Source: an uncultured Candidatus Saccharibacteria bacterium (GTDB lineage Bacteria; Patescibacteriota; Minisyncoccia; Phycocordibacterales; DAORIS01). Taken from it: a DNA stretch of 64,000 bases. The DNA is taken from positions 461,720 to 525,719 of the forward strand of contig CAZXUH010000001.1 of NCBI GenBank assembly GCA_964644035.1. The letters are read 5' to 3'. Position numbers and translations under genes: made by a program. The notes beneath the pieces were generated by a model. That model made no database searches, had not been told where the DNA came from, and worked only from the letters and a program-made list of their open reading frames with translations. Of this stretch, positions 4,095 through 45,733 are shown one piece after another (the stretch's first letter is position 1; every line of letters begins with the position of its first letter).

Positions 4095-5297
4095 TTATCT
4101 ATTACGATTTCCATTACCATTGTTGCCTTTGAGTAGTTTTTTCCAATTCCACTTTTTATCGTGTTTCTTGTTGTCATTGTCCGGTGCATCACCCCATGAA
4201 TCTCGGGCATTACCGAAATCAATGTTTTGGATGACTGAACCGTTGCTGATCGTCAATGATGCATAGTCTGCAGTCATCTGATCGATACCTTCATTTTCAT
4301 GGTTGATCAATTCGACACTATATGTACCGTCGGCAAGAGTACCAAATGAATAGTAACCATTGCTGTCAGTGGTTACGCTCTTCAGAGCGCTACCCTGCCA
4401 GTTGGTACCTGTATAGAGTTTGACTGTCCAACCTTGAAAACCAGGTTCGCCGGCATTGCGTACGAGGTTTTTATTGACGTCACGATAGACAATACCGCTG
4501 ATCGAACCTGCTCCAGGATTTGGAGGGGTTGTCGTAGCAGGATTTGTTACCGTACCGCTGACGCAGGCAGTTGTTGCAGTGGTGTTGTTTGCATCACCTC
4601 CGTATACTGCTTGCCAATAATACGTTCCGGCAGTATTAAACTGAACAGAACTAGAATTTGGCACGACACCGTTGGTCACTGTTCGTGTACCAGCATCGAC
4701 TGCTCCTGTCGTACATGCACTGTTGTTGTAGACTCGGAAGACAACCGATCCACCAGCGCCGGCAGTCGCATTGCCCAATGTTGCAGTGCTAAAGACCGAT
4801 GAACCAGTCTGTATCGAACTACTTGAGAGTGCGAGTGAGAGAGTTGTGTTTTGAGCTGACGAAGTCAACATTGCACAACCAGAATTGGCTGGTGAATAGA
4901 CATCACCTTGACCATTGAAGTGAGCGAGATATGAGAGACCTGTACTTGGTACTGTTGTTGCATTTGATTCAGCAACACCGTTGACCAAAGCCACACCCGA
5001 CTGCATGACTCCAGTACCCGTACATGATGTGTTTGGGTAAAGAGTAAAGTCGACGGTACCTGTTGCCATAGAGTTGCTATCAGTCGACGAAGCGACCGAA
5101 GCCCTTGCATGGACCGATGTGCCGATTGCTGCAGACGTGATTACGTTGTGACTTGAGTCATGAACAACGTTGGTCATTGTTGGTGCAACGTCAGCACGCA
5201 CAATAGCTGCCGCGAAGAGCAGTGAGCCAAGTGCGAGAGGTGTGATGAGTAAGAGTGCGTATCTACGGGCTTTATCCGAATAGTTACGTGTATACAT
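4095..5297 (-). CDS. Thr/Ser-rich cell-surface protein with C-terminal SdrD-B/Cna-B-like domain
   Basis: Signal peptide and long T/S/G/N-rich region. C-terminal ISGIVYRDVNKN...SNGYYSF...DGTYSVEL is an SdrD B-like fold motif. Basic K/N-rich tail. Confidence 0.55.
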   Translation of the reverse strand: MYTRNYSDKARRYALLLITPLALGSLLFAAAIVRADVAPTMTNVVHDSSHNVITSAAIGTSVHARASVASSTDSNSMATGTVDFTLYPNTSCTGTGVMQSGVALVNGVAESNATTVPSTGLSYLAHFNGQGDVYSPANSGCAMLTSSAQNTTLSLALSSSSIQTGSSVFSTATLGNATAGAGGSVVFRVYNNSACTTGAVDAGTRTVTNGVVPNSSSVQFNTAGTYYWQAVYGGDANNTTATTACVSGTVTNPATTTPPNPGAGSISGIVYRDVNKNLVRNAGEPGFQGWTVKLYTGTNWQGSALKSVTTDSNGYYSFGTLADGTYSVELINHENEGIDQMTADYASLTISNGSVIQNIDFGNARDSWGDAPDNDNKKHDKKWNWKKLLKGNNGNGNRNR

Positions 5298-11559: not shown

Positions 11560-11600
11560 AATCTGTGACGCAGAACCTTAACCCCTTTTGGAGGATAGTT

Positions 11601-12359
11601 ATGGGCAAGTACGATAGCAATATTGCACGACAGAACTTTGAAGCATTGAGCAAGAATCCTTATCCAGGCCGAGGCATCGTCGTTGGCGTGGATGAGACGG
11701 GAGAAAGTATGATTCAGATTTACTGGATCATGGGCAGGAGCGAGAACAGCCGAAACCGCATTTTCAGCGCCGACAAATCATTCCTGGGCCGGATCTTTAC
11801 GGAGCCCGTCGACGCGTCAAAAGTCACCGACCTGAGCCTCACCATTTACAATGCAATGGACGAGGCTCACGGTCAGTGCATTGTCAGCAACGGCAATCAG
11901 ACCGATACTGTCACTGAGCAGCTCAAGAGCCGGAAAACTCTCGGCCTCGCATATATGCTCAGGGAATGGAAATACGAGCCTGATTCACCCAACTTCACCC
12001 CGCGCATTACCGCCATCAGCTCTTTTGGGATCGATGGCAAGTCAGATCCGCAAGTCTCATTTCTCACACTTAAAAAATGTGCGAACAATGACAGCTGTCA
12101 ACAAATTGGTCAGATGCACTTCTCGATCCAAAAAGGCTTCGGCTTCTGTGTCACCACCTACACCGGTGATGGCAATCCCTTGCCTTCGTTCGACGGCAAT
12201 CCGCTGCTCATGCCACTGACTGGCAATTCTGAAGCGATTGCCCAGACGTACTGGCGTGCACTCAACGAAGAAAACCGTGTCTCGCTCGTCGTCAAGACAA
12301 TCCCCCGCTCAAGTCCGACGACGGTTCGGATCATCAATAAGTTCAGCAAAATCGCCTGA
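11601..12359 (+). CDS. IMP cyclohydrolase-like protein (PurO family, NTN-hydrolase fold)
   Basis: Matches to archaeal PurO as I recall it: GRGIVVG...RSENSRNR, IVSNGNQTDTV, FTPRITAI. Start moved to the ATG at 11601, which follows a strong GGAGGATAG SD. Confidence 0.55.
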   Translation: MGKYDSNIARQNFEALSKNPYPGRGIVVGVDETGESMIQIYWIMGRSENSRNRIFSADKSFLGRIFTEPVDASKVTDLSLTIYNAMDEAHGQCIVSNGNQTDTVTEQLKSRKTLGLAYMLREWKYEPDSPNFTPRITAISSFGIDGKSDPQVSFLTLKKCANNDSCQQIGQMHFSIQKGFGFCVTTYTGDGNPLPSFDGNPLLMPLTGNSEAIAQTYWRALNEENRVSLVVKTIPRSSPTTVRIINKFSKIA

Positions 12360-13903: not shown

Positions 13904-15139
13904 CTACTCGTATCGGAGAGCTTCCATCGGACTTTTTGCAGCCGCGCGTTTTGCGGGATAGATACCAAAGGCGAGACCGATAGCAGCTGAAACACCAAGA
14001 CCAAGGAGTGCTGCAGAGATTGGGAATGCAAATGTCCAACCAGCTGCGACATACGTACTCAGAACTATCGATGCCAGAAATGATATACCTGCTCCAAGCA
14101 AGATTCCGATCACACCACCAAGACCGGTGAGCATGACCGATTCAATAAGAAATTGAGAAAGAATATCACCTTCGGTCGCTCCGAGAGCTTTGCGAAGACC
14201 GATTTCACGCGTACGTTCTGTAACCGACACAAGCATGATATTCATAATACCAATACCTCCGACAACAAGAGAAATACCAGCAACAGATCCAAGGAGTGCT
14301 TTGAGCACGGTCGTAATTGTTCCAATGATTTCTACAGCATCGGCTTGAGTCGTAATATGAAAGTCATCATCTTTTGCATCAGTAATATCGTGAGACTCAC
14401 GAAGCGTGGCTTTGATATCAAAAAGTACACGAGGTAATATTTCTTTTGTTTCGGCGCGCACGATAATAGCATTGAAATGATCAGCGCCGCTGAGATATTG
14501 CTGTACGGTTGTATACGGAATGACAACCATTTTATCGACATTGAGAAGTGATTGGCCTTCTTTTGGAAATATACCGATCACCCTAAATGACTGATCTTTT
14601 ATTCTTATACTCTGCCCTATCGGATCGGATAGTCCGAAAATATCTTCTTTGATTTCTGCACCGAGCACCACGACACGTGATTTCTGCCTGACATCATCGA
14701 TAGTGAAAAATTCTCCAATATTTGGGTAGATCGTAAGAATATCTTCAAATACTTCAGACGCTCCAGTGACAGCTCCACGCTCTGTCTTGCCTTCATACAA
14801 AATAGTGACTGGCACCGTAACAAGCGGTGTCATATCTTTTACACCCTGGACATTTGAAGGTTTGCTGAGTGCATCGATATCTCTCTGTTTGAGAGAGTCT
14901 GTATAAAGTTCGGCATAATCGGACGGTCCGCTTGGCTGTTTGCCTGGTTCGATATTGATCGTTGTCGCACCAAGACCTTCTACTTGTTTAAGAATAAGAT
15001 TTTCTGCTCCCTGACCCATGGCCATGACGATGATGATCGATGTAATACCGATCACGATACCAAGAATCGTAAGAAGTGATCGAGATTTGTTTGTCGAAAG
15101 ACCAGTATATGCAGTTTTTACTCTGTGTTTGAGAAGCAT
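13904..15139 (-). CDS. MacB/FtsX-family ABC transporter permease (MacB periplasmic domain + FtsX-like 4-TM domain)
   Basis: 411 aa. N-terminal TM, large extracytoplasmic domain, C-terminal three-TM FtsX-like fold. Adjacent to a MacB-type ATPase. Confidence 0.8.
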   Translation of the reverse strand: MLLKHRVKTAYTGLSTNKSRSLLTILGIVIGITSIIIVMAMGQGAENLILKQVEGLGATTINIEPGKQPSGPSDYAELYTDSLKQRDIDALSKPSNVQGVKDMTPLVTVPVTILYEGKTERGAVTGASEVFEDILTIYPNIGEFFTIDDVRQKSRVVVLGAEIKEDIFGLSDPIGQSIRIKDQSFRVIGIFPKEGQSLLNVDKMVVIPYTTVQQYLSGADHFNAIIVRAETKEILPRVLFDIKATLRESHDITDAKDDDFHITTQADAVEIIGTITTVLKALLGSVAGISLVVGGIGIMNIMLVSVTERTREIGLRKALGATEGDILSQFLIESVMLTGLGGVIGILLGAGISFLASIVLSTYVAAGWTFAFPISAALLGLGVSAAIGLAFGIYPAKRAAAKSPMEALRYE

Positions 15140-15140
15140 A

Positions 15141-15857
15141 TTATTTTGAGAAATTATCAGCTGCGATTCGGCGATTGTCGACTCTCTTATCGCTTTCTAT
15201 ATTTCCGTCTTTGATTCTAATCGTTCTCTTGGCATGTTCGGCTGTCGATGTTTCGTGAGTAATAAGCAAGACAGTGTGTCCCTCATCATTGAGTTTCTGA
15301 ATAATTTCCATAACAGCCTTGCCTGATTTTGAATCAAGGTTGCCTGTTGGTTCATCGGCAAAAATAATACTTGGATTGTTTACCAACGCTCTTGCAATAG
15401 CAACACGCTGCTTTTCTCCACCAGAGAGTTGTGCTGGTTCAAAATCAATACGATGCGAGAGTCCTACTGCATCGATAGCTTTTCGAGCACGTTCATTCCA
15501 CTCTGATTCTGGAACATCAGAATATAGAAGTGGCAGTTTTACGTTTTCCAATACTGACGTACGAGCCAAGAGATTGAATGCTTGGAAAATAAAACCGAGC
15601 TTATTGTTGCGAATCTTAGCTACTTCTTCTTTGCTATATGTTGAGACTTCTTTGCCTTCAAAAATATATTCTCCACCCGTGTGAAGATCGAGAAAACCAA
15701 GAATCTGTAGCAAAGTAGATTTGCCCGAACCAGATGGTCCCATTACTGCCAAGAATTCTCCTTTTTCAAGAGTGAAATTGATACCGTGAAGTACGGGAGT
15801 TTCCGTACCTTCGCCATAATACGTTTTCTTAAGATTTTTTAATTCCAGAAGAGCCAT
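15141..15857 (-). CDS. ABC transporter ATP-binding protein (MacB/LolD type)
   Basis: Walker A GPSGSGKST, signature LSGGEKQRVAIARA, Walker B IIFADEPTGNLD. Confidence 0.85.
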   Translation of the reverse strand: MALLELKNLKKTYYGEGTETPVLHGINFTLEKGEFLAVMGPSGSGKSTLLQILGFLDLHTGGEYIFEGKEVSTYSKEEVAKIRNNKLGFIFQAFNLLARTSVLENVKLPLLYSDVPESEWNERARKAIDAVGLSHRIDFEPAQLSGGEKQRVAIARALVNNPSIIFADEPTGNLDSKSGKAVMEIIQKLNDEGHTVLLITHETSTAEHAKRTIRIKDGNIESDKRVDNRRIAADNFSK

Positions 15858-15862
15858 GGATA

Positions 15863-17374
15863 TTATTTACCTTCGCTAAATACGATCACTTTGTCTCCTT
15901 CGGTCAAACCACTAATGATTTCCACACTACCGTTTGATCCACGAAGTCCTGTCTGAACTGGTTTGTCTTCTACTACTTCCCCTACCTGAACTTGGACATA
16001 TTTATTGCCATTCTTGATAAACACTGCACGCTGAGGAACAGCGAGCACATTGTCTTTTCTTTGTCCTTTGACGATAAGATTGGCGGTCATACCAGATTTG
16101 ATACGATCATCTTTATCTACGAACTGAAATGTAGTCTTGTAGGTGGCAACACCATCGACAACCGTTTCTGCAGGATCAATAGCGGTTACTGTAGCCTTAA
16201 ATACTACATCACTGTCATAGGCATCGAGTGTGACGTCGGTCTCAGCACCTAGAATGATTTTGGCCATATCAGCTTCTGGGACATTGGCTTCGATTTCAAA
16301 CTGATTTGCCGAGATAACAGATACAACAGGCGTTGAAGCTGAAATACTTTCTCCTACTTTTGCTTTTACATCGGTCACGATTCCATTGACTGGAGATTTA
16401 ATAGTTCGATTGTTGATCTGTACCAAGATATCCTGAATATCGAGTTCTGCTTGTTCGATATCGATTCTGCTTATCTGTGTGTCGCGATTTTCATTGTTGA
16501 TCGAACGACGAGATTCATTGATAGCATTTTGAACACGAGTGATTTCCGACAAGAATCCATTGGTGCTTGAAGTAAATTCGTCGAGCGTTGCAAGATCGCG
16601 ATCTATTTCATCGGGTACCGGAGCGTCGGTATTGTCTTTGACATATTTTACGAGCGTTCGGGTATCTTTGACGATATCCGAGAGTGTTTTAGTAATAGTG
16701 TATGTTTTAGCAAGCATGGCTTCGAGTGCTTCTGGTGATGCATTGCGAGAAAAGCCCGTATAAGAAGTTTCGACTACACCAAAAGAAATCTTTGCACGAT
16801 CAAAACGTGCTCCGATCGATTCTTTATTTTCTCGAGCATTGGTACTTATATTGCGAACATTTGTATCTGAGAAGTACGGAGAATATGAAGTTTGATAAAA
16901 TATATTGTCGAATTCAGAAATAATATCTGGCAATTCTACGAATGTATCCGAAATCGCATTGAAGCCATCTTCATATGTCTTAGCGAGTGTTTCTTGTGCC
17001 GTTGCTGCTGTTCCCTGTTCAAAAGCGAGTCGAGCCTTTGCCAATGCAGCTTGCTGACGTGCAAGACGTACTTGCAAATCGGCGCTGTCTACTCGGACCA
17101 ATATTTGTCCTGTTGTTACTTCCTGACCTACTTTGACTGCAACCGAAGATACCCTTCCGCCTGATTGTACTGAAAGTGCAACATCTTCTGCAGGACGTAC
17201 TCGGCCAGTAACATCTACTTCTTGTGAGACTGTCTGTGGAGCCAAAACAATCGTTTCGCCCTGCACCTTTGGCTTTCCTCCGCCAAATACAACAGCACCA
17301 GCAATAATCAACACCAAAATAAGAGTTGGTATCGAGAATTTGTAATTTTTTATGAATCGTTTAATTTTTCCCAT
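15863..17374 (-). CDS. HlyD-family periplasmic adaptor (membrane-fusion protein) with long coiled-coil insert
   Basis: N-terminal TM, lipoyl/beta-barrel motifs at both ends, and a roughly 250-aa coiled coil in the middle. First gene of the adaptor–ATPase–permease operon. Confidence 0.7.
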   Translation of the reverse strand: MGKIKRFIKNYKFSIPTLILVLIIAGAVVFGGGKPKVQGETIVLAPQTVSQEVDVTGRVRPAEDVALSVQSGGRVSSVAVKVGQEVTTGQILVRVDSADLQVRLARQQAALAKARLAFEQGTAATAQETLAKTYEDGFNAISDTFVELPDIISEFDNIFYQTSYSPYFSDTNVRNISTNARENKESIGARFDRAKISFGVVETSYTGFSRNASPEALEAMLAKTYTITKTLSDIVKDTRTLVKYVKDNTDAPVPDEIDRDLATLDEFTSSTNGFLSEITRVQNAINESRRSINNENRDTQISRIDIEQAELDIQDILVQINNRTIKSPVNGIVTDVKAKVGESISASTPVVSVISANQFEIEANVPEADMAKIILGAETDVTLDAYDSDVVFKATVTAIDPAETVVDGVATYKTTFQFVDKDDRIKSGMTANLIVKGQRKDNVLAVPQRAVFIKNGNKYVQVQVGEVVEDKPVQTGLRGSNGSVEIISGLTEGDKVIVFSEGK

Positions 17375-17480
17375 GTGTATTGAGACTGATTTGATAAGTT
17401 TTAAAAGATTATAGCACGTTTTTCCAAAAAATCAATAGAAAATCTAGCAGAAAGCCGTGTGATCAACTTGCGATCAACTC

Positions 17481-17873
17481 CTAATAAGACGCTTCAGATG
17501 CCGCTTTATTACCCTTCAATCGAGCACCGAGCCAGACGCTAGGCAATGCCAGCACAACAAGTCCCCATGAATACCACGCTGGACCAAGATCAGCATTGGC
17601 AATAGCTCCTGCTGTACCTGCTACTAAACCGACAAAACCAAGAATAATTGCATGCTTCATAGGACGCTCCGGTGCAAGTGTTGCTGTTACGTAACCACCC
17701 AGCACTGTGTAGACCGTTCTATAAAACAATGCGAGCAAAAGAAGCGAATAACTGAACACCGCTCCATCTGGAAAAATATTGAATTTGTGAAGAATAGCGT
17801 CGGTACCAATAGAGAGAATAACTACTGTCAAAAATCCGAGAAAAATTGCTCCTATGCTTTTTAGTATTTTCAT
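17481..17873 (-). CDS. Hypothetical 4-TM membrane protein
   Basis: Hydrophobic 130-aa protein. Start taken at MKILKS. Confidence 0.35.
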   Translation of the reverse strand: MKILKSIGAIFLGFLTVVILSIGTDAILHKFNIFPDGAVFSYSLLLLALFYRTVYTVLGGYVTATLAPERPMKHAIILGFVGLVAGTAGAIANADLGPAWYSWGLVVLALPSVWLGARLKGNKAASEASY

Positions 17874-17887
17874 ATCGTTTGATTGTA

Positions 17888-17922
17888 TCAAAAAAGCCGC
17901 GGGTAGTTTTCCCCGCGGCTTG
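17888..17922 (-). terminator. Rho-independent terminator (AAGCCGCGGG-loop-CCCGCGGCTT)
   Basis: Perfect 10-bp inverted repeat followed by TTTTTT on the minus strand. Confidence 0.6.
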
Positions 17923-17933: not shown

Positions 17934-18530
17934 TCAATAGAGAGACGCCATCACTTCTTGGATCCATTGGAGCATTTCCTTGGTCTGGCATGGCTGTCCA
18001 ATGACGGCGTCGAAGTTGTTGGACTTCACCCATTCAGGTCCGAGTTCGGACGCGTTCTTGCTCATCGCAATGAGCTTCGTCATCAACGTAGCCGCATTGC
18101 TTTTCACGAAGACCTTGATCTCAGTCGCCTTCTCGACATGATCGACGTTGACGAAGATAACGTGCGGCTGGAATTCTTGAATGACGACCGAAGACATGAG
18201 TCCAAACTTCGTTGTCTGGACCACATACCCTTCCTCCTTCTCGATAAGAGCCTTGGGTATTTCGTAGACGTCAGGATCGACATCAATAATGAGCACCCGC
18301 ACCTGCGGTCCGACCAGAAAAATTCGAAGATCTCTGAGTGGTATCCCATGCTTCTGCATGAATGGAACCAAGTTCCTGACCTCGACCCGCCGATCCCGGC
18401 TACCCGGCAATCGATACCCTTTCAACAGGTCTTTATCGACCCATTTACTGACAGTTCGAGGTGCAACATTGCAGATTTTTGCAATCTGACCCGTGGTCAA
18501 CGTTTCATCCTTTGCTACCACAGAACCCAT
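17934..18530 (-). CDS. HTH_17 (excisionase/MerR-type helix-turn-helix) + CheY-like receiver-domain protein, GC-rich
   Basis: TTGQIAKICNVAPRTVSKWV is an excisionase-type HTH. The receiver-like region follows (VLIIDVDPD...IFVNVD...K). GC is well above the background. Start taken at MGSVV. Confidence 0.5.
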   Translation of the reverse strand: MGSVVAKDETLTTGQIAKICNVAPRTVSKWVDKDLLKGYRLPGSRDRRVEVRNLVPFMQKHGIPLRDLRIFLVGPQVRVLIIDVDPDVYEIPKALIEKEEGYVVQTTKFGLMSSVVIQEFQPHVIFVNVDHVEKATEIKVFVKSNAATLMTKLIAMSKNASELGPEWVKSNNFDAVIGQPCQTKEMLQWIQEVMASLY

Positions 18531-18623
18531 AACGTGCCTCCATTCGGTTAACAACGCGACTTTCGAGCCGCTCTTCTCGCCACACATTACAACACAAATT
18601 CGGGTTAGGCAATAATGGATCTA

Positions 18624-18659
18624 CTTAAAATAAAGACGTCCAAGAAATTGGACGTCTTT
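18624..18659 (-). terminator. Rho-independent terminator (AAGACGTCCAA-loop-TTGGACGTCTT)
   Basis: 11-bp perfect inverted repeat plus TTTATTTT on the minus strand. Confidence 0.6.
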
Positions 18660-18678
18660 AAAGTGATCAGTTCGGTTT

Positions 18679-19131
18679 CTACTGCAGTGATTCGACGACA
18701 CTAAAGAAGTCAGGAAGTGCTTTCTTGAGCTCAGCACTTGGTGGCTCATCAAATATCTTCGCGATTTCCTCCGGAGTAAGAGGGCGTTGTGGTGCCTTGT
18801 TCCACGCAACAGTCTCTGCGCAAACAGAATCCAAGTATTTCAGCCCTTTTTGACGTAGTGGAGTGTTCACCTCGGATAATTTCTCAGCTAGAGTAGCAAA
18901 GAACTCCAGTGGAGTTTGTCCCTTTCCGCCAATGGTAAACTCTTTCAGTTTTGCGGCCGCTTCTGCTGAGAATTCACCCTTCGCAACTCCGAGGGGATCT
19001 GTTAGAAGTGTGAAAGAAACAAGACCTTTTGCTTCTTCACCCTTAAGCCACTCGACCATGTCCACAATACCCGGACAACCCACTTCCTTAAATATCTTTT
19101 TCAGATTTTCCGTATCAATCGTCTCTGCCAT
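18679..19131 (-). CDS. Hypothetical soluble protein, GC-rich
   Basis: 150 aa. AAAGGAG SD 7 nt upstream of the ATG at 19131. No recognisable motif. Confidence 0.4.
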   Translation of the reverse strand: MAETIDTENLKKIFKEVGCPGIVDMVEWLKGEEAKGLVSFTLLTDPLGVAKGEFSAEAAAKLKEFTIGGKGQTPLEFFATLAEKLSEVNTPLRQKGLKYLDSVCAETVAWNKAPQRPLTPEEIAKIFDEPPSAELKKALPDFFSVVESLQ

Positions 19132-19256
19132 CGTATCTCCTTTCAAAAGAATAGATTCTCATAACAGACTAAAGGAATTCCAGATTGTGTCAATAAATTA
19201 GGTAATACGAAATTTTTCTTGCTTAAATATTCTCTCGGAGTAAGATGAGAACAGAG

Positions 19257-19427
19257 TTAGAACAATACCCAAACAATAGGAGTCTCAAGGTCAGACTCAA
19301 CTTTATTAAAATTGAAAAGCACTTCGCCAACCAGACTTACGAGCTCCGTCAATTGCTCATCCGAAAGACCATCATCTAGAGCCCCTGGATTTCCATCATC
19401 ATATTGATCTAGATATTTTTTATCCAT
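19257..19427 (-). CDS. Possible small acidic protein (56 aa)
   Basis: Unannotated ORF MDKKYLDQYDDGNPGALDDGLSDEQLTELVSLVGEVLF... lying between flanking genes. No SD seen. Confidence 0.2.
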   Translation of the reverse strand: MDKKYLDQYDDGNPGALDDGLSDEQLTELVSLVGEVLFNFNKVESDLETPIVWVLF

Positions 19428-19429: not shown

Positions 19430-19702
19430 TTAATCAAACTGCAAAACATAAAAACCTTTATCACTTAGTTCTGGCTGATTTTCAACCCAGTTCTTTAAAT
19501 CAACCTTTCGTGCATAAGTAACTTTCTTTTCAACAAATCTCCCTGTTGGCTTCCTATCGGCACCTGTTCCAACCCACTCTTCAAGACGAAGAATATCACC
19601 GTCCTCAATATCAAAATCGGCAAGTCTTAGTTCAAACTTTTTCTTACCCGCAAGAATCATATCTAACCATTCCTTATCGATTTTTTTAATTACTGTTCTC
19701 AT
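19430..19702 (-). CDS. DUF3850 (ASCH-like) domain protein
   Basis: 90 aa. DKEWLDMILAGKKKFELR...ILRLEEW pattern typical of the DUF3850/ASCH fold. Confidence 0.5.
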   Translation of the reverse strand: MRTVIKKIDKEWLDMILAGKKKFELRLADFDIEDGDILRLEEWVGTGADRKPTGRFVEKKVTYARKVDLKNWVENQPELSDKGFYVLQFD

Positions 19703-20022
19703 ATATTTTCCAAAGGATACACGTCCAAAGCAACTTCATCATATGGATGAATTTCCTTTATTACTGCAATAACATTCTTGAGTTTTTCTCTGGGACAGAT
19801 CGTTTCAATTCTTTCTTCAATCACTTCTTCAAGTTTTCCAACTTCACCAATATGAGGATTGGCTCCTTGTTCAGGTTTAAAACGTCCAACACCCTTTGAG
19901 GAGAAAGTGCAGTGGCTATAGTTACCAATTTTTCCTGCACCCGCTTTGCCCATAGCTTCACGAACCACATCAGTATGCGTTTCTGGGACAAATACAACAA
20001 TTTTTACATTAACAGAATCCAT
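19699..20022 (-). CDS. Small PII-like protein resembling the insert domain of Nif3/YqfO-family proteins
   Basis: GKIGNYSHCTFSSKGVGRFKPEQGANPHIGEVGKLEEV...ERIETICPRE...IHPYDEVALDVYPLE matches the conserved YqfO insert-domain pattern as I recall it. Confidence 0.35.
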   Translation of the reverse strand: MDSVNVKIVVFVPETHTDVVREAMGKAGAGKIGNYSHCTFSSKGVGRFKPEQGANPHIGEVGKLEEVIEERIETICPREKLKNVIAVIKEIHPYDEVALDVYPLENI

Positions 20023-20179: not shown

Positions 20180-21859
20180 TTAACCGAAGGTAAAAGTAAA
20201 TGCTCGCAATCCAGCGTTCGGTATCACTATCTTAAGCGTGTGCTTTCCATAGTCTGTATCTTGGATGAGCTGGTAGAGCGTTTCATCCTTGATAGTTATC
20301 GTCTTCACTAGCTTATCATCTTCATAGATTTCAACATCCACACCGTTCACCGACCCTGCAGTCATATAGACATTCTTAGCCTCATAACCGAACACAATGG
20401 TTGCCGATCCTTTATTTTCAGCATATTCATCTTCAATATCCCAGACGCCTCCAAGATAGAGATTATTAGGTACGACGCGAGCGGGAATAGAAAGTGTTTG
20501 CTCGCCAACTACACCAAAGCGACCATTCGCCAGATACTGATTTCTGCTAGCGCCGAAATACGTTTCTGGACTCCTTACCTTCCTTGAATCAACCAAAATA
20601 ACATCTGAAGGAGTGGTGTTTGCAGCTTCAGACACGGTATTCTCTGTGCCCATTCGCAGAGCGCGCTCCTCCAGCGCCTTTTGAATAGCCTTTTCTGTTT
20701 CTTCATAAGAACCTTCGCCGATATGGTCATATACGATATAGCCATCGATATCGACAAGATATTTTCGCGGCCAGTACTGATTGCCGAGTGCTCGCCATGT
20801 CGAGTAATCATTATCTAAAACGACAGGATATTTGATATCGAATTTCTCAACGGCTTTTTCTACATTTGACTGAACTTTTTCAAATCCAAATTCCGGTGTA
20901 TGCAGTCCTACGATCTCAAGCCCCTGGTCATGATATTTTTCATACCAATCGTTAAGATATGGAATGGTTCTCTGGCAATTGATGCAACTGTATGTCCAGA
21001 TATCAAGAAGCACCACCTTGCCCTTGAGCGAATCCAGCGTGATCGGCTTGCCATCTGTATTGATGTATCCGTCGATCGTGCTTAGTTCAGGAACCTTGTT
21101 GAATTTTTTTTCTTTACTATCATCCTTAGCTTCGTTCTGTACCTCCAAAAGCTTTTGCTCTACTTTGGTTATATCGAAGAAGCCCGAGTTCGTAATGAGC
21201 GTCTCGATTTTCTTGTCGACACCAGTGAGAATTGCCACGCCCACGAGAATGAAGATAATTCCCAGAACGCGTTTGAACGTTCCCTTCGGATTAGACACGA
21301 CGCCAAGCTTGCCCATGATCTTCTGCCCGACAAAAGCAATAGCAAGCAGCGCCACGCCCAAGCCGACAGTGTAAGAAAGCAGATACACCATACCAAGGAC
21401 CGGGCTTACCGGAAGCACGGTAGCAAGAACGATAAAGTATGTTGGGCTGCATGTAGAGAATACCGGACCCAACGCAGCGCCCACAATGACGTCTCCCCAA
21501 AAATTTTTCTTTTGATCGCCTTTGCCGAGCAGTTTGTTAGACCCGATACTCAACTTAGCAATGATCCGACTCTCCCACAGAGCTGGGAAAAGCGTCACAA
21601 GCCCCAAAAACAGGATGATTCCTCCTGATATAACTTTCCAAGTATATTCCGGGACCGCAACAAATGCCGTACTCACCTTGAGAAGGAGCGTGAAGGCAAT
21701 GACAGAAAGACCGAGCGAACCAATTACTGTCAAAGCCTTTTTTACATTTACTTTTCCGTCGGCAAGCGATCCTCCCACGATAATGGGCAACAGAGGGAGA
21801 ATGCACGGAGCGAGCACGGTCAGTACGCCGCCTATAAATGAAATAATCAGAAGAAACAT
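20180..21859 (-). CDS. Fusion of CcdA/DsbD-type thiol-disulfide transporter TM domain with a TlpA/ResA-like thioredoxin domain and a C-terminal beta-rich domain
   Basis: N-terminus LAPCILPLLP matches the CcdA cysteine motif. The thioredoxin domain carries DIWTYSCINCQ (CxxC). Confidence 0.7.
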   Translation of the reverse strand: MFLLIISFIGGVLTVLAPCILPLLPIIVGGSLADGKVNVKKALTVIGSLGLSVIAFTLLLKVSTAFVAVPEYTWKVISGGIILFLGLVTLFPALWESRIIAKLSIGSNKLLGKGDQKKNFWGDVIVGAALGPVFSTCSPTYFIVLATVLPVSPVLGMVYLLSYTVGLGVALLAIAFVGQKIMGKLGVVSNPKGTFKRVLGIIFILVGVAILTGVDKKIETLITNSGFFDITKVEQKLLEVQNEAKDDSKEKKFNKVPELSTIDGYINTDGKPITLDSLKGKVVLLDIWTYSCINCQRTIPYLNDWYEKYHDQGLEIVGLHTPEFGFEKVQSNVEKAVEKFDIKYPVVLDNDYSTWRALGNQYWPRKYLVDIDGYIVYDHIGEGSYEETEKAIQKALEERALRMGTENTVSEAANTTPSDVILVDSRKVRSPETYFGASRNQYLANGRFGVVGEQTLSIPARVVPNNLYLGGVWDIEDEYAENKGSATIVFGYEAKNVYMTAGSVNGVDVEIYEDDKLVKTITIKDETLYQLIQDTDYGKHTLKIVIPNAGLRAFTFTFG

Positions 21860-21860
21860 G

Positions 21861-22346
21861 TTATTTTACTTCAGCAACAAGAGCCTCTAGGGTCGGGCTA
21901 CCGCTCCACTTCTTAATGAGATTGCCATCCTTATCCGCCTGAACGAACGTATGCTGATAGGTAACTCCATATTTTTTCTTTAGATCCGCAGAGTTGTCGT
22001 AGTCAACATCAAGGATAGTGAGGCTCGAAGGAATGTAACCGAGATGCGCCTTTATGTCTTTATCAAGCGCAATACAGGTTGGACACCATCCCGCTCTAAA
22101 AAAGAGTACGACATCATGAGTGCTTGAAGCCATCGCAATCTTTTCAGGCGCGTATGCTTCATATGATCCTGCTTTCATCATGGTGTCACCCATCATTGCA
22201 TCATCCTTGTCCATCATCACCTGATCATCTGACATCATGTTTTCTTTTTCCATCATCGCATCGTCTTTATTATTCATTGATGCATACACTCCAATAACAA
22301 CAACCAAGACAACGATTCCAATAATAATTCCTGTGTTTTTATTCAT
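21861..22346 (-). CDS. Membrane-anchored thioredoxin-family protein with Met/Asp-rich linker
   Basis: WCPTC active site. N-terminal TM anchor. Linker DDAMMEKENMMSDDQVMMDKDDAMMGDTMM. Confidence 0.65.
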   Translation of the reverse strand: MNKNTGIIIGIVVLVVVIGVYASMNNKDDAMMEKENMMSDDQVMMDKDDAMMGDTMMKAGSYEAYAPEKIAMASSTHDVVLFFRAGWCPTCIALDKDIKAHLGYIPSSLTILDVDYDNSADLKKKYGVTYQHTFVQADKDGNLIKKWSGSPTLEALVAEVK

Positions 22347-40189: not shown

Positions 40190-40831
40190 TTAGTTGCAAG
40201 TATCCACCACTTCGATCTGACCTGAGCTCAAAATATTGACCTGTTTTGTCTTAGCGGTCTGTGAAAGCAAACAGATAGTTGCTTGGTTGAAATGCGTGCC
40301 ATTGGCAATAATAATCGCATCTGGATTTGGCCGCATAAAGGTCACGCTCATAGCTGTAATAGAAGGAGATGTATCGTCAGAACACTCTATATCGGCAACA
40401 CCTGAGTCTGGTATGACGCAGAAATTTTGTATCGTATTGCCCGCGGGGAAACTAAAGGTGCGCATAATCGTATCGGATGAATCGTAGCCTTCTATACCTC
40501 CTGCCCCACCAACAATATTGTTGGTATCAGCGAAGAAACTGTAGCGAGCATTGTTTGAAGCAGATAGATAGATTCCATAAGGATTATTGAAAGAACCAAG
40601 ACCATCCACATCCTTGCTACCAAGACCATATGTCTGAGCTTCGCGTATTGAGAGAGCAACGTCGTCGGCCAAACCGGAGAGAATAATATTGTTTCCAAAC
40701 TTTCTTTGATTGGCGACGAGTACTGTCGTCAAAATAGAAAAGATAGCCATGACGATAAGGAGTTCGAGCAAGCTAAATCCAAAAGAGCTTTTTTTAAATA
40801 ACTTTAAAATATGTTTTGAAATATGTTTCAT
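40190..40831 (-). CDS. Type IV minor pilin / pseudopilin (GspH/FimT-like)
   Basis: FGFSLLELLIVMAIFSIL is a prepilin motif. Confidence 0.75.
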   Translation of the reverse strand: MKHISKHILKLFKKSSFGFSLLELLIVMAIFSILTTVLVANQRKFGNNIILSGLADDVALSIREAQTYGLGSKDVDGLGSFNNPYGIYLSASNNARYSFFADTNNIVGGAGGIEGYDSSDTIMRTFSFPAGNTIQNFCVIPDSGVADIECSDDTSPSITAMSVTFMRPNPDAIIIANGTHFNQATICLLSQTAKTKQVNILSSGQIEVVDTCN

Positions 40832-41595
40832 CGTGTGAAAGAAAATAGCATCAATATGTCTTCAATATGTATATTAGCAAAAAATACGAAGGCTGTACCT
40901 ATCACCAAAAACGGTGCAAACGGTATTTCACTTTTCATGTGCAGATTGCCAAGCCGGAAAACCATGACCAAAATACCAATAAGCGCCCCGATCCAAAATG
41001 CGAGCGTGATAGCTGCATAGCCCATATTCATTCCAAGCATCCAGCCCATGGCCAAGCCAAACTTAGCATCGCCAAATCCCATCCACTTCCCTTTTGAAAT
41101 GAGCCAGATAAACAGAAATGGAAATGCTACTGCCGGTCCAGCGACCAAAAGCGATATGGCTTCGCTTGGTATGCGGACAAAAAGCATATTCACAAACAGA
41201 CTGAGAAATGCAAAAGAAAATACCAAACCATCGGGAATAATTTTGTGCTTGAGATCATATACAAAAATCGCTACCAGCAATGACCATACGATTGCATAGT
41301 ATGGAGTACCGATAGTAAATCCAAAAATCTCATATATTCCGACAAAAAGAGCTCCAGTAGTAAACTCTACCAATGGATATTGCCATGATAATCGGCTATT
41401 GCAGCCCGTACAGCGGCCACCCTGAAAGAAGAAACTAAACAATGGTATAAGTTCGTACCAAGCGAGCGTTTTGCCGCAGGAGAGGCATTTTGAGCGGCCA
41501 GTGATTTTCCAACCTGTGTTGTATCTATAGATAACTACATTGAGAAAGCTGCCTATGCATAGACCGATCAGAAAAATAAAGAGTTCAACGATCAT
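40828..41595 (-). CDS. pilD: Prepilin peptidase (A24 family)
   Basis: N-terminal Cys box (CLSCGK...CTGC), polytopic, catalytic Asp region GFGDAKF. Length 255 aa. Confidence 0.85.
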   Translation of the reverse strand: MIVELFIFLIGLCIGSFLNVVIYRYNTGWKITGRSKCLSCGKTLAWYELIPLFSFFFQGGRCTGCNSRLSWQYPLVEFTTGALFVGIYEIFGFTIGTPYYAIVWSLLVAIFVYDLKHKIIPDGLVFSFAFLSLFVNMLFVRIPSEAISLLVAGPAVAFPFLFIWLISKGKWMGFGDAKFGLAMGWMLGMNMGYAAITLAFWIGALIGILVMVFRLGNLHMKSEIPFAPFLVIGTAFVFFANIHIEDILMLFSFTR

Positions 41596-41652
41596 GATGC
41601 AATAATAGTAGCATATATTTTAGTTGACCTACTGGATACCTCCTCCCCTAGC

Positions 41653-41739
41653 CCCTCCTCTAAAGAGGAGGGGAACACTAAAAGGTCTTGTGCTTCAGAG
41701 TCCTCCCTCCTCATTCTGAGGAGGGATTGAGGGAGGAGG
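41653..41739 (+). repeat. GA/CT-rich palindromic repeat element, copy 1
   Basis: 22-bp perfect palindrome CCCCTCCTCTAAAGAGGAGGGG plus a 65-nt tail containing a second inverted repeat CCTCCCTCCTCA...TGAGGAGGGATTGAGGGAGGAGG. Ends 4 nt before the pilin stop. Confidence 0.7.
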
Positions 41740-41743
41740 CATA

Positions 41744-42163
41744 TCACCTACTCACCTTAAAATTGTTTGCCGGAGTGCCGCTATTGCAACTATCTGATGT
41801 CGCTACGGAAGTACTATTTGCATTTTCAAGCGTCGTACCAAGACAATACGAAAGTCTGAGACCACTAGCATTGGTTGTCGGATTGTAGCTATATGCATCC
41901 CCTTGTGGTCCAACAGGCAATGTCGGCACAAAACCTTCTGTCACAAGCTGCATAAGATTAGCTGGATACTGCTTACTTTCACTGTCTGAGTTCTGAAACG
42001 ACGCTTCAAGTGCTATTTGAACCTGCTTAATATCATTGAGTCTTCTTGCATCACGTGCTCTCTGTCGAGCTTCATTGCCCCGAAACATTACTACACCAGA
42101 AAGAACACCGATAATAGCTACTGCAATAAGCAATTCAATAAGAGTAAATCCTTTTTTATTCAT
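41744..42163 (-). CDS. pilA: Type IV pilin (PilA-like)
   Basis: MNKKGFTLIELLIAVAIIGVLSGV is the canonical type IVa prepilin leader. Start moved to 42163 (GAAGGT SD). Confidence 0.85.
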   Translation of the reverse strand: MNKKGFTLIELLIAVAIIGVLSGVVMFRGNEARQRARDARRLNDIKQVQIALEASFQNSDSESKQYPANLMQLVTEGFVPTLPVGPQGDAYSYNPTTNASGLRLSYCLGTTLENANSTSVATSDSCNSGTPANNFKVSR

Positions 42164-42184
42164 ACATATATTGTACCTTCTACC

Positions 42185-42218
42185 TAGACAAAACAAAACA
42201 CCGCTTTTGGCGGTGTTT
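42185..42218 (-). terminator. Rho-independent terminator between the two pilin genes
   Basis: AACACCGC-loop-GCGGTGTT hairpin followed by TTTTGTTTTG on the minus strand. Confidence 0.55.
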
Positions 42219-42253
42219 TTATCTGCAATGAGTAGAGAAAATAGAAAAGCTCT

Positions 42254-42676
42254 CTAGCTACAAGATACTGCGGTACCTGAAGGATTAGCCGTTGTGGCAA
42301 CTGCATTACCCTTTGAGTCAACACACCAATATGATGCAGTATTACTCTTCAACTGGGCTGATAGTACCCAAGCACCAGCAACATCTTTACATACAGTCGC
42401 ACCTGATCCAGCCAACCTTGAGCCTGTGGCCATCTGGTCAATACCACCACCAGTTGAACTGTTATAACAAACGCCTAAGTAACTCTGGCTATTTGAATCA
42501 TAGTAGAGTTCAGCCTGTGCACGTGCATTGTTAACGTTAGACTTAATGGCTGCATCAGAACCCTTTGCGCGAGCAGAGTTGAGTGATGCAAGCACAACCG
42601 CTGATAGGATACCGATGATAGCGATGACCACCAAGAGTTCAATCAGGGTGAAACCTTTTCTAAAAGAAGTTTTCAT
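42254..42676 (-). CDS. pilA: Type IV pilin (PilA-like), second copy
   Basis: MKTSFRKGFTLIELLVVIAIIGILSAV. C-terminal Cys pair for the D-region disulfide. Confidence 0.85.
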   Translation of the reverse strand: MKTSFRKGFTLIELLVVIAIIGILSAVVLASLNSARAKGSDAAIKSNVNNARAQAELYYDSNSQSYLGVCYNSSTGGGIDQMATGSRLAGSGATVCKDVAGAWVLSAQLKSNTASYWCVDSKGNAVATTANPSGTAVSCS

Positions 42677-42832
42677 TTATAAATATATTATCTTATAACT
42701 ATTAAACATCGCGTCCCTACGTTTGGCCATTATCAGCGGCTAAATAAAGGCACGACTGCTTACACGTAATTATATACCGCCTATTGAAGGCGTAAATGGG
42801 TCGTGTGGATAACCAATCACCTTCTCCCCTTT

Positions 42833-42854
42833 CCCCTCCTCTAAAGAGGAGGGG
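42833..42854 (+). repeat. Palindromic repeat, copy 2 (palindrome only)
   Basis: Exact CCCCTCCTCTAAAGAGGAGGGG followed by AAC, as in copy 1. Confidence 0.7.
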
Positions 42855-42918
42855 AACTTTATGTTTTATTGAGGTTATTTTTAGTACTTCTGCATACAAC
42901 GAGAGTCATACTCCTTAC

Positions 42919-43341
42919 ATGAAGAAAATAATAAACAAAAATGAGCTGCTTTTACGCAGACGAGACCTAAGAAAATCAATGACTCACCAAGAGATACTTC
43001 TATGGGAGCATTTTAGACGCAAGCAAATGGGCTATCGCATCCATCGACAATACAGTATCGGATCATTTGTTGTGGATTTTTATTGCCCAAAAGCAAAGCT
43101 TATTATAGAAATCGATGGGTATCACCATAATAAACCAGAAGAAATAGAATACGATACTTTTCGAACAAAATTCTTTGAAGAACTTGGCCTCAATGTAATA
43201 CGTTTTACTAATCAACAAATTAATACCAATCTTGTAAAAGTTCTTACAGCGATTAAAGCTAAACTCCTCTCCTCCAAAGAGGAGAGAGCTTCTACACCTC
43301 CTCCCTCAATCCCTCCTCATCTTGAGGAGGGAGGACTCTGA
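42919..43341 (+). CDS. DUF559 endonuclease-domain protein (Vsr/restriction-endonuclease-like fold)
   Basis: SMTHQEILLWEHFRRKQMGYRIHRQYSIGSFVVDFYCPKAKLIIEIDGYHH...RTKFFEELGLNVIRFTNQQI matches the DUF559 consensus. The 3' end reads into repeat copy 3. Confidence 0.7.
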   Translation: MKKIINKNELLLRRRDLRKSMTHQEILLWEHFRRKQMGYRIHRQYSIGSFVVDFYCPKAKLIIEIDGYHHNKPEEIEYDTFRTKFFEELGLNVIRFTNQQINTNLVKVLTAIKAKLLSSKEERASTPPPSIPPHLEEGGL

Positions 43342-43383
43342 AGTACAGGACCTTTAGTGTTCCCCTCCTCTATAGAGGAGGGG
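43265..43383 (-). repeat. Palindromic repeat, copy 3 (inverted relative to copy 1) plus a degenerate extra palindrome
   Basis: Reverse-complement of 43297..43383 aligns almost base-for-base with copy 1. The palindrome variant is CCCCTCCTCTATAGAGGAGGGG. An extra CTCTCCTCCAAAGAGGAGAG sits at 43265-43289. Confidence 0.65.
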
Positions 43384-43421
43384 TCAGGGGAGGAGGTGTA
43401 AAAAGGAGGTGGCCAGGGTGG

Positions 43422-44630
43422 TTAAAACGCCGACGCAATATTGTAAATAGGCACCAAAACTGCCGCAAGGAGAATACCAACCCCGACACCCAAAAGCACA
43501 ATCATCACTGGTTCGATAAGACTGACCAGTGTATCTACAGCATTGAGCACTTCGCGCTGATAAAAGGTCGACATAGTCTTGAGAATCTTACCAAGCTCAC
43601 CAGTTTCTTCACCGACTTTGACCATTTGAATGAATATGCCTGGGAATTGTGGATATCTTGAGAATACGTCGGAAACCGATGCTCCAGCTTTGACTGCTTC
43701 GATACTATCGAGCAAGATTTTCTGATAGGTATAACTCTCAACAACTGTCGAAGTGATTTCGAGTGTGCGAAGCATTGGTATACCAGCCACGATCATCGTG
43801 TTCATGTTGTCGGCAATACGAGAAAGGAAAAGTTTTCTGTACAAATCACCGATAAAAGGTATTTTGAGTTTCATTTCATCGAACCATGCCTTGCCGGAAT
43901 CGCTTTTTATATATCGGAAGAAAAGAAAACCACAGATCACTAATGCGCCGAGCAAGAAGAATCCATAATTGACCAAAAATGCACTGGCCCCAAGGATAAT
44001 CTTGGTATAAATCGGTATTTCCTGACCAGAATCGGTCAAAATCGTGGCGATCTTAGGAATGACCATCGTGAACATCAGGATCATGACAGTAATGAACGTC
44101 GCGACGATAAATGCCGGATAAATAAAGGCATTGCGAGCCTTCGACGTCACTTCAAATGATCGGTCGAGATAGTCAGCAAGATAGACAAAGGTCTCATTGA
44201 GCTTACCTGATTCTTCACCAGCTCTCACCATGTTTACATAGAAAAGAGAAAATGTTTTTGGATGTTTACCCAAAGCTGCAGAGATAGAACTTCCACCCTG
44301 CAAGTCATCGGCTACGACCGTCAAAATAGTACGTAGTTGTGGCTGTTCTGTCTCAGCAGCCAAAAGTCTGAACACTCGAAGCGCTGAAACTTGCGATTCG
44401 AAAAGGATCGATATCTGACGAGAAAGAATAACGACATCTTTATTGCTAACACGAGAAAAGAAATTGAGATTTCTCTTAAGAATCGAGCCTTCTTCTTGGA
44501 GTGGCTTGATCGAGGTAAGTATCAATCCCCTTCTTTGAAGAGAATTGATGGCAATATCCATCGTGATCGCATCGATCGATCCTTCTTTTGATGTGCCGTC
44601 TGATTCGAGTGTCTTGTATCTAAAAATCAT
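43422..44630 (-). CDS. pilC: Type IV pilus platform protein PilC (GspF family)
   Basis: 402 aa. Two GspF repeats, three TM segments, typical PilC organisation. Confidence 0.85.
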   Translation of the reverse strand: MIFRYKTLESDGTSKEGSIDAITMDIAINSLQRRGLILTSIKPLQEEGSILKRNLNFFSRVSNKDVVILSRQISILFESQVSALRVFRLLAAETEQPQLRTILTVVADDLQGGSSISAALGKHPKTFSLFYVNMVRAGEESGKLNETFVYLADYLDRSFEVTSKARNAFIYPAFIVATFITVMILMFTMVIPKIATILTDSGQEIPIYTKIILGASAFLVNYGFFLLGALVICGFLFFRYIKSDSGKAWFDEMKLKIPFIGDLYRKLFLSRIADNMNTMIVAGIPMLRTLEITSTVVESYTYQKILLDSIEAVKAGASVSDVFSRYPQFPGIFIQMVKVGEETGELGKILKTMSTFYQREVLNAVDTLVSLIEPVMIVLLGVGVGILLAAVLVPIYNIASAF

Positions 44631-44638
44631 GATTTATT

Positions 44639-45703
44639 TTATGAAAGCATGCGCTCGAGAAGCTTAGGATTGACTGAACGATTGTATGCATTCTCGATAG
44701 AAATTTGTCCCTGACGTACAAGCTCGACCAAAGACCGGTTAAGATCGATCATTCCCTGCTGAGAACTTGTTTCGATCACGGTATTGATTTCATGCGTGCG
44801 CTTTTCGCGGATAAGATTGGCGACGGCACCGTTGTTGATAAGCAATTCATAGGCTGGCACAAGACCTCCTGATATACGAGGGATGAGACGCTGAGAAAAG
44901 ATACCAGTAAGGCTGGCTGCAAGCTGCACGCGGATCTGAGCCTGCTGCTCTGCAGGGAAAATGTCGATAATACGTTCGATAGTCTGAGCAGCATTGTTGG
45001 TATGAAGTGTAGAAAATACCAAATGTCCTGTTTCAGCAGCAGTAACAGCTGTTGCGATAGTTTCGAGACCGCGCATTTCACCGATAAGAATCACGTTGAC
45101 GTCTTGTCGGACAGCGTGGACAAGAGCAGTGTTGAAATCTTTTGTATCTATATTGACTTCACGTTGGTTGATAATAGATTTTTTAGGAGTGTAGACATAT
45201 TCCACTGGATCTTCAATGGTAATGATGTGTTCCATTCGATCTTGGTTGATAAGTTCGATAAGTGCAGCAAGTGTCGTCGACTTTCCCTGTCCGACTGGTC
45301 CTACCACAAGAAAGAAACCTTGTTTCTTGCGAGTAAAGATTTCGAGTGAAGGCGGAAGTCCGAGTTCTTCGAGTGTTCTGACATGATTTGGAATCGTTCT
45401 GAGTGCAAGACCAATCCTTCCCTGCGCTACATAGCCATTGCCGCGGAAACGTCCTGTGTCGCCATGAGAATATGCAAAATCTATTTCTTTATTGGCAATA
45501 AACTGCTGCTTGTACTCTGGCGACATGAGAGCATCGACAATACCAAGCATTTGATCTCTAGTGAGTGGTTGAAAATTGAGAAGTGGTACGAGATATCCCG
45601 ATACGCGAATAGAAGGCTGACGATGTTCTGCAAGATGCAGGTCAGAACCACCTTCCTTTATGACAATTTGAATGAGCGAATCGAGAAATTTTTTTGTATC
45701 CAT
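44639..45703 (-). CDS. pilT: Twitching-motility (retraction) ATPase PilT
   Basis: Walker A GPVGQGKST, Asp box, His box. Length 354 aa. AIRNLIRE-type motif near the C-terminus. Confidence 0.85.
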   Translation of the reverse strand: MDTKKFLDSLIQIVIKEGGSDLHLAEHRQPSIRVSGYLVPLLNFQPLTRDQMLGIVDALMSPEYKQQFIANKEIDFAYSHGDTGRFRGNGYVAQGRIGLALRTIPNHVRTLEELGLPPSLEIFTRKKQGFFLVVGPVGQGKSTTLAALIELINQDRMEHIITIEDPVEYVYTPKKSIINQREVNIDTKDFNTALVHAVRQDVNVILIGEMRGLETIATAVTAAETGHLVFSTLHTNNAAQTIERIIDIFPAEQQAQIRVQLAASLTGIFSQRLIPRISGGLVPAYELLINNGAVANLIREKRTHEINTVIETSSQQGMIDLNRSLVELVRQGQISIENAYNRSVNPKLLERMLS

Positions 45704-45733
45704 GCCAAATCTATTTAATGAACGTATTATATC

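Follow-up and report, generated by a model that had tools for sequence, protein, structure and literature searches.

A probable horizontally acquired HTH_17-receiver transcription factor with a predicted aspartate-less, phosphorylation-independent receiver in a Candidatus Saccharibacteria genome

What does a protein with an excisionase-type helix-turn-helix (HTH) in front of a CheY-like receiver do in a genomic region where no histidine kinase is found? The question is raised by a 64,000-nucleotide stretch of DNA from an uncultured Candidatus Saccharibacteria bacterium (GenBank assembly GCA_964644035.1, contig CAZXUH010000001.1, forward-strand positions 461,720 to 525,719); the whole of this stretch is called the window below. 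A preliminary description had singled out two minus-strand open reading frames (ORFs), here gene A (198 aa) and gene B (150 aa), as a GC-rich pair, with gene A as a possibly horizontally acquired regulator. Both ORFs are present (Table 1), as are the motifs VLIIDVDPD and IFVNVD quoted for the gene A product. The same gene arrangement recurs in independent assemblies that are 99.97–100% identical, showing that the locus is not chimeric. Our analysis makes it likely that gene A encodes a horizontally acquired transcription factor of the HTH_17-receiver family, acting independently of phosphorylation through an aspartate-less receiver. Gene A is a divergent member of a catalogued, uncharacterized family, and represents neither a novel architecture nor one half of a functional gene pair.

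A search of 5.8 billion proteins with the gene A product returned 3,214 homologues, to E 1e-39, all annotated HTH_17+Response_reg and about 192 aa in length. Identical copies aside, the best of these are 35–42% identical to the query. The HTH comes first and the receiver fold second, as had been described and as both family profiles and an AlphaFold2 model confirm. This order had been presented as inverted; the HTH does precede the receiver, but there is nothing unusual about the arrangement, which defines a catalogued family of more than 3,200 proteins. We took the ATG at 18530 as the start codon because GGAGG lies 7 nt upstream of it and the N-termini of the family align there. A 217-aa alternative ORF (to 18587) lacks a ribosome-binding site, overshoots the N-termini of all homologues and is probably an over-extension.

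The N-terminal domain belongs to the winged HTH proteins of the excisionase, MerR and BldC kind. When gene A is scored alone the match to Pfam HTH_17 is borderline (26.3 bits against a cutoff of 27, E 9e-6), though the excisionase-like motif first noticed there is real. Other general models also fell short of their cutoffs, among them NCBIfam HTH_BldC (NF033787; 27.1 bits, E 2.7e-6, cutoff 77), the excisionase model TIGR01764 (18.8 bits, cutoff 28.8) and Pfam MerR (18.3 bits, cutoff 28.2), and PHROG excisionase and small-terminase families were matched at E 1e-3 to 1e-4. A profile made from the HTH of the family scores gene A at 107 bits. Per-position conservation showed that gene A keeps the family-invariant signature LTTG..AKICNVAPRTVSKW, together with the wing motif GYR.PGS.DRR; written over its full extent as LTTG..A.ICNVAPRTVSKW ... 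GYR.PGS.DRR, the signature is retained at every invariant position. Over the HTH, gene A is 63% identical to the family, compared to 85% within the family. In the AlphaFold2 model the domain folds as strand-helix-helix-strand-helix (residues 10–60) with a predicted local distance difference test score (pLDDT) of about 90, and a short linker helix (residues 66–73) leads to the receiver. With its DNA-reading domain unimpaired, the protein can still be expected to bind DNA.

The C-terminal domain gives a weak match to Pfam Response_reg when gene A is scored alone (15.2 bits, E 0.024). On the other hand, when 185 family members other than the window protein were used to make a profile of the receiver alone, it aligned with residues 76–198 from end to end (positions 1–123 of 124; 84.8 bits, E 2e-22), and the family profile matches solved receivers in the PDB at E 7e-18. 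The AlphaFold2 model has a pLDDT of 87.3 overall, about 90 over the receiver and above 90 in its core. Its top Foldseek matches are all receivers, DivK, RR468, PhoB and similar proteins, with TM scores of 0.8–0.87. The receiver-like C-terminus that had been proposed was therefore upheld. A B12-binding or methyltransferase-like Rossmann domain, considered as another identity for this region, is excluded by the receiver profile, the (beta-alpha)5 model and the PDB receiver matches.

The fold is retained, but the phosphorylation pocket is not. It had been left to be checked whether the phospho-acceptor aspartate aligns, and it does not: strand beta3 (residues 124–128 in the model) ends in Asn128, and other residues likewise stand in place of the conserved lysine, the aromatic switch and the second acidic residue. 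Among 186 non-redundant family members, the phospho-acceptor position holds D in 172, N in 11 and E in 3. The beta5 lysine is found in 180 of the 186 (97%) and is Q179 in gene A, while the second acidic residue, mostly D, E or S in the family, is V84; both substitutions are unique among the 186. The aromatic switch, F or Y in 90% of the family, is V176. Gene A keeps D83 at the first acidic position, where D is invariant in the family, and S157 at the beta4 serine (S in 174/186). Overall, its receiver is 27% identical to the family, compared to 57% within the family. Judging from these residues, the C-terminal domain is almost certainly a pseudo-receiver that has kept the fold and lost the chemistry of phosphorylation. 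Aspartate-less receivers (ALRs) usually keep the first acidic residue; many lack the second and the lysine, and Asn frequently stands in for the Asp, for example in RitR (PMC4395418). The pocket of gene A matches this pattern, which points to an aspartate-less receiver that would work independently of phosphorylation.

How such a protein might work can be approached through better known systems. RitR of Streptococcus pneumoniae (Asn53) and ChxR of Chlamydia resemble gene A in having a receiver without the phospho-accepting Asp (PMC4395418). Gene A shares with ALRs the kept first acidic residue, the lost second acidic residue and lysine, a DNA-binding partner domain and the lack of a kinase partner, the last as far as the 64-kb window is concerned for gene A. 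In contrast to gene A, with its N-terminal HTH_17 and C-terminal receiver, RitR and ChxR are of the OmpR type with an N-terminal receiver and a C-terminal winged helix, and there is no sequence relationship beyond the receiver superfamily. For the DNA-binding domain, the nearest solved relative is BldC of Streptomyces, a MerR-like minimal winged HTH (6ama/6amk), with PDB matches at E about 0.1. The likeness suggests, by analogy, DNA binding without the MerR coiled coil. BldC binds direct repeats as head-to-tail multimers (PMC5859096); it is however a 68-residue single domain without a receiver, whereas gene A has 198 aa, and head-to-tail multimerization is only an analogy here.

Several further combinations bear a partial likeness. 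Classical MerR proteins consist of an HTH, a coiled-coil dimerization helix and an effector-binding region, where gene A has an HTH, a short linker helix and a receiver. Similarly to gene A, the MerR regulators CarH and LitR join an N-terminal MerR-like HTH (weak HTH match to 8jbs) to an alpha/beta regulatory domain, but theirs is a B12-binding Rossmann domain, and gene A has a receiver in its place and no Pfam B12-binding match. Excisionases such as Xis and TorI are small single-domain winged HTH proteins encoded beside a tyrosine or serine recombinase in a mobile element, whereas gene A has two domains, and neither an integrase among the scanned window ORFs nor flanking repeats were found with it. 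A receiver from Colwellia psychrerythraea deposited as 'DNA-binding response regulator, merR family' (3cnb), of which only the receiver is solved, matches both the family profile (E 7e-14) and the gene A model. Going by this name, which is no proof, receivers may be joined to MerR-class HTH domains outside Planctomycetota as well.

Taken together, the following mechanism can be proposed. If it behaves like BldC, excisionases and MerR-like winged HTH proteins, the gene A protein would bind repeated sites in DNA as a dimer or as a head-to-tail multimer. Its receiver, with the fold but not the phosphorylation chemistry, would not be driven by a histidine kinase and would most likely serve as a constitutive or a ligand- or partner-controlled oligomerization module. 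The protein would thereby regulate transcription without phosphorylation, as a one-component-like regulator.

We then turn to where such regulators are at home. In a species-representative genome set, at least 597 stretches encode a relative, and the best 80, from which the taxonomy was read, are all from Planctomycetota, mostly from the class Phycisphaerae (Tepidisphaerales and Phycisphaerales). Among named genomes the family is restricted to Planctomycetota, as a widespread and usually monocistronic orphan response regulator. In the planctomycete loci (L003–L082 and L093–L172) the gene is typically monocistronic, with opposite-strand neighbors on both sides. These neighbors include a 775-aa protein with pseudopilin and secretin genes in Phycisphaerales, and a glycosyltransferase with an extracytoplasmic function (ECF) sigma/anti-sigma pair in Tepidisphaerales. 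No kinase was recognized among the conserved neighbor clusters, which were judged from representative sequences and not by a Pfam scan, and exact k-mer counting over 69 upstream regions of planctomycete genes gave no motif for a shared operator. The Phycisphaerae orphans have the domain order, the invariant HTH and wing residues and the receiver fold of gene A, with lengths of 192–198 aa, and are annotated 'response regulator', 'excisionase family DNA binding protein' or, in Poriferisphaera corsica, 'DivK'. Unlike them, gene A resides in Patescibacteria, is 35–42% identical and carries V84, N128, V176 and Q179, although about 8% of the members also lack the Asp. We found no paper in which any HTH_17+Response_reg member is characterized experimentally.

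Loss of the phospho-acceptor is not confined to gene A. Variants with N or E at the phospho-site recur within the family (14/186 and 9/76, about 8–12%), some of them also without the Ser and Lys, and the copy of the cultured Poriferisphaera corsica (P0032) is among them. The 92% of members that keep the Asp are presumably phosphorylated. As a separate observation, two IMG/VR contigs (L091 5001..5279 and L092 5001..5174) encode the HTH part only, without a receiver, at 47–52% identity to residues 1–88 or 11–68 of gene A; these proteins may be stand-alone relatives of the DNA-binding module.

How, then, did a planctomycete-type regulator come to lie in this genome? The host was assigned to Patescibacteria from the relatives of genes flanking gene A; for the MacA-like adaptor, the best relatives (63–46% identity) come from Patescibacteria, Parcubacteria, Paceibacterota and Minisyncoccota. 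Gene A is the sole copy of its family met in Patescibacteria among the 5.8 billion proteins, the species-representative set and Joint Genome Institute (JGI) metagenome contigs, and the JGI contigs held nothing nearer than 40% identity. Its composition is also deviant. The window as a whole has a GC content of 42.8%, and gene A, at 0.50, falls in the top 1.0% of 597-bp windows. Its GC content at third codon positions (GC3) of 0.624 is the second highest in the window, 3 standard deviations (sd) above the mean of 0.398 (sd 0.076, 75 ORFs), and the adjoining genes are host-like. Both genes had been reported as markedly GC-richer than their neighbors; this applies to gene A but not to gene B, which is ordinary with a GC of 0.468 (top 12% of windows) and a GC3 of 0.423, about 0.3 sd above the mean. 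The singleton status within the phylum and the outlying composition lead us to conclude that gene A was probably horizontally acquired by its Patescibacteria host, which is the most economical reading. The suggestion of horizontal acquisition is thus plausible for gene A; gene B is neither anomalous in GC nor linked to gene A by conservation.

Neighbor-joining (NJ) analysis of 186 sequences grouped the gene A protein with an ALR subclade (P0085, P0093, P0101, P0102 and P0114) in 93 of 100 bootstraps on all columns. The grouping persisted when pocket columns were removed (49/60) and on the receiver without pocket columns (54/60), and nine derived residues are common to the gene A protein and the subclade. 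The subclade members lie on moderate-GC contigs with non-CPR (Candidate Phyla Radiation) gene content, and have gene GC3 values of 0.55–0.59 compared to 0.62 for gene A. Given this grouping with an aspartate-less, moderate-GC subclade, the phospho-Asp was probably lost before the transfer. An earlier NJ tree of 67 named genomes had paired gene A with a 'Pirellulales' sequence (62% of bootstraps); the pairing was judged to be long-branch attraction and was superseded by the 186-sequence analysis. The phylogeny that had been called for to find a donor thus gave a grouping with the ALR subclade, yet none of the sampled lineages is the donor. An identity of 35–42% combined with a GC3 anomaly that persists obliges us to postulate an unsampled one, and the donor of gene A is outside the sampled lineages. 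The CPR host would accordingly have acquired gene A from an unsampled moderate-GC donor related to the aspartate-less subclade.

A number of findings weigh against this picture, some concerning the origin of the gene and others the action of its product. The identity of 35–42% poorly fits a recent transfer from a sampled lineage, yet the GC3 anomaly suggests incomplete amelioration. The branch leading to the gene A protein is very long (median distance to the family 1.24, against a within-family maximum of 0.85), the grouping with the ALR subclade vanishes on HTH columns only (0/60), and long-branch attraction could account for it. Marks of insertion are lacking as well: there are no meaningful direct or inverted repeats around 17.4–19.3 kb, no integrase among the scanned ORFs of the window, and no adjoining tRNA, the nearest being at 23.2 kb. 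A comparison with an empty site neither shows nor refutes an insertion, given that in the closest relatives with the MacAB-type operon (63% and 59% identity) the genes upstream are arranged differently.

In another reading, gene A is native to Patescibacteria and vertically inherited, with an incidental GC excess. The absence of mobile-element scars agrees with it, other genes of the window likewise reach a GC of about 0.5, and gene A is equidistant (35–42%) from all sampled planctomycete members, which fits an old, separate lineage. We nevertheless consider this unlikely: no other Patescibacteria homologue was met in any of the three sequence collections, the GC3 of gene A stands 3 sd above the window mean between adjacent genes that are host-like, and its protein nests with one derived ALR subclade and not outside the family.

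With regard to the action of the product, DNA binding and regulation are predicted from the domain class only, and the receiver might be less inert than its pocket implies. The preliminary description noted that no cognate histidine kinase is encoded in the window. This is borne out by our scan, which covered all ORFs of at least 250 aa outside the stretch L001 plus seven shorter ones: no kinase was found among 30 window ORFs of at least 219 aa, nor among the genes called on the matching contig. A dead receiver pocket would explain the missing kinase. The search was however confined to 64 kb of the genome, and a kinase may lie elsewhere. Gene A could then be a working response regulator with either a deamidated Asn128 or the nearby Asp130 as the acceptor. 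Indeed, deamidation can in principle turn an Asn at the phospho-site into Asp again, and such reversion is documented in the ALR review (PMC4395418). The receiver fold is intact and confidently modeled, D83 and Ser157 are kept, and 92% of the family retain an Asp that is presumably phosphorylated. Even so, we regard a working response regulator as quite improbable, since V84, N128, V176 and Q179 were replaced together, ALRs that act without phosphorylation are marked by such a joint loss of Asp, the Mg-binding acidic residue and Lys (PMC4395418), and no kinase was found in the window.

It is very unlikely that gene A is a decaying, functionless remnant of a transferred gene on its way to a pseudogene. 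The destroyed pocket, a receiver only 27% identical to a family whose members share 57%, and the singleton status in the phylum would all fit decay. On the other hand, gene A has an unbroken ORF, a strong ribosome-binding site and a terminator of its own, and all family-invariant DNA-contact residues are kept. The receiver core is modeled with a pLDDT above 90 and scores 85 bits from end to end, and several planctomycete lineages have likewise maintained ALR forms of this kind.

Gene B does not alter this assessment. It gave no match in Pfam, NCBIfam or PHROG, and a word-indexed protein search returned only gene B itself. Searching 1.84 billion representatives exhaustively with HMMER brought up nine small, remote homologues (32–48% identity), which share the N-terminal motif ...F..AGCPGI..LI(D/E)(W/Y)L..., and two further matches that are spurious repeat proteins. 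The context could be read for three homologues: one is alone on its contig, and the other two, on low-GC contigs, have HIT/FolB-like neighbors or pilus and dCMP-deaminase neighbors. No HTH-receiver gene was found beside them in the contexts read. Gene B was considered as a partner of gene A and rejected, its homologues adjoining unrelated genes; it is probably an unrelated, native small protein. The two genes described as a pair are thus neighbors that do not form a conserved module. Each is followed by its own strong hairpin and T-run, so that the description of one terminator per gene was accurate, and the two appear to be transcribed as separate units.

It is highly improbable that gene A is an excisionase or recombination directionality factor of a mobile element, or that genes A and B form a two-gene module such as a regulator with its anti-regulator: the HTH_17, TIGR01764 'excisionase' and PHROG excisionase/small-terminase matches and the adjacency of the two genes on the same strand in a variable region are in favor, but no integrase was found among the scanned window ORFs, no att-like repeats or adjoining tRNA are present, searches for plasmid and phage relatives of gene A (plasmid, phage and IMG/VR sets) gave nothing or four weak matches, the family is chromosomal and monocistronic in planctomycetes, homologues of gene B were never beside an HTH-receiver gene in the contexts read, and a strong terminator separates gene B from gene A.

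Table 1. Features of the gene A and gene B loci (positions in the 64,000-nucleotide window).
Feature	Position	Strand	Evidence or remark
Gene A, 198-aa HTH_17 + aspartate-less receiver regulator (predicted)	17934..18530	-	ORF list, homologues to E 1e-39
Gene A stop codon	17934..17936	-	
Gene A Shine-Dalgarno GGAGG	18537..18541	-	Sequence; 7 nt upstream of ATG at 18530
Gene A intrinsic terminator-like hairpin	17894..17921	-	10-bp stem with 8 GC pairs, then TTTTTT; recovered in the inverted-repeat search as well
Winged helix-turn-helix, residues 9-62, excisionase/MerR/BldC-like	18345..18506	-	Pfam, NCBIfam, family profile, model
Receiver-fold (beta-alpha)5 domain, residues 76-198, degenerate pocket	17937..18305	-	Profile, model, Foldseek
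Codon AAC, Asn128 at the phospho-acceptor position, C-terminal end of beta3	18147..18149	-	Alignment, model
Gene B, 150 aa, member of a very rare family of small proteins	18679..19131	-	
Gene B Shine-Dalgarno AAGGAG	19137..19142	-	Sequence
Gene B intrinsic terminator-like hairpin	18631..18660	-	13-bp stem, then T-run; parts gene B from gene A transcriptionally

The surroundings of gene A offer a lead as to its target. Downstream lies a MacA/ABC/MacB-type efflux operon (13904..17374, minus strand), and in two Patescibacteria relatives (L083 9559..13486 and L085 9571..13470) a MarR-family gene directly precedes such an operon. In the window this MarR gene is absent and the nearest upstream regulator gene is gene A. 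Between gene A and the operon are a gene for a 130–136-aa membrane protein (17481..17891) and a terminator, and a sigma-70-like promoter (TTGATT-16-TATAAT with extended TG, 17435..17408) stands ahead of the MacA-like gene. The MacAB-type operon as a target of gene A is only a lead. Patescibacteria are mostly episymbionts, and one may imagine that gene A was captured from a moderate-GC planctomycete host of the CPR cell that carried the ALR-subclade form, then rewired as a kinase-free local regulator, perhaps of the MacAB-type operon. We consider this a long shot; if true, gene A would point to the host of this CPR lineage and would be a case of a pseudo-receiver transcription factor recruited across phyla.

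Other parts of the window were noted in passing. Just upstream of gene B (19430..20022, minus strand) a 90-aa DUF3850/ASCH-domain protein overlaps a 107-aa protein with faint P-II/CutA-like similarity, and a 56-aa ORF (19257..19427) adjoins them; all have a very low GC3 of 0.24–0.28, in sharp contrast to gene A, which follows about 0.9 kb downstream on this strand. The highest GC3 of the window (0.638) belongs to an archaeal-type IMP cyclohydrolase-like gene (11565..12359, plus strand; PF07826, E 9e-41), which lies on the strand opposite to its neighbors. This gene too may have been acquired horizontally, and its composition deviates more strongly than that of gene B. At 20180..22346 (minus strand), a 559-aa fusion of a DsbD-like membrane domain and thioredoxin/AhpC-TSA domains adjoins a 161-aa thioredoxin, with the GC rising to 0.51 at 21200..21800; these genes look like an extracytoplasmic thiol-redox module. 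A 400-aa protein with SdrD_B and Big_3_5 (Ig-like) domains (4095..5297, minus strand; GC locally raised to about 0.50 at 4640..5280) is probably a surface adhesin. Finally, a type IV pilus cluster (40828..50668, minus strand) encodes a prepilin peptidase, a PilC-like T2SSF protein, two T2SSE ATPases (one with MshEN) and PilM; such clusters are common in CPR genomes.

Within the window, the gain is that a 'hypothetical protein' becomes a member of a defined regulator class, and that a receiver predicted not to be phosphorylated would explain the missing kinase. As a copy across phyla in a reduced CPR genome, gene A is one minor observation on how genes pass into Patescibacteria and changes no current view. 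Beyond the window, it directs attention to the HTH_17-receiver orphan regulators, a large family that is strongly conserved and, it seems, unstudied; this planctomycete family is arguably more interesting than gene A itself. The repeated loss of the phospho-Asp among its members makes it a natural system in which to study how receivers become independent of phosphorylation.

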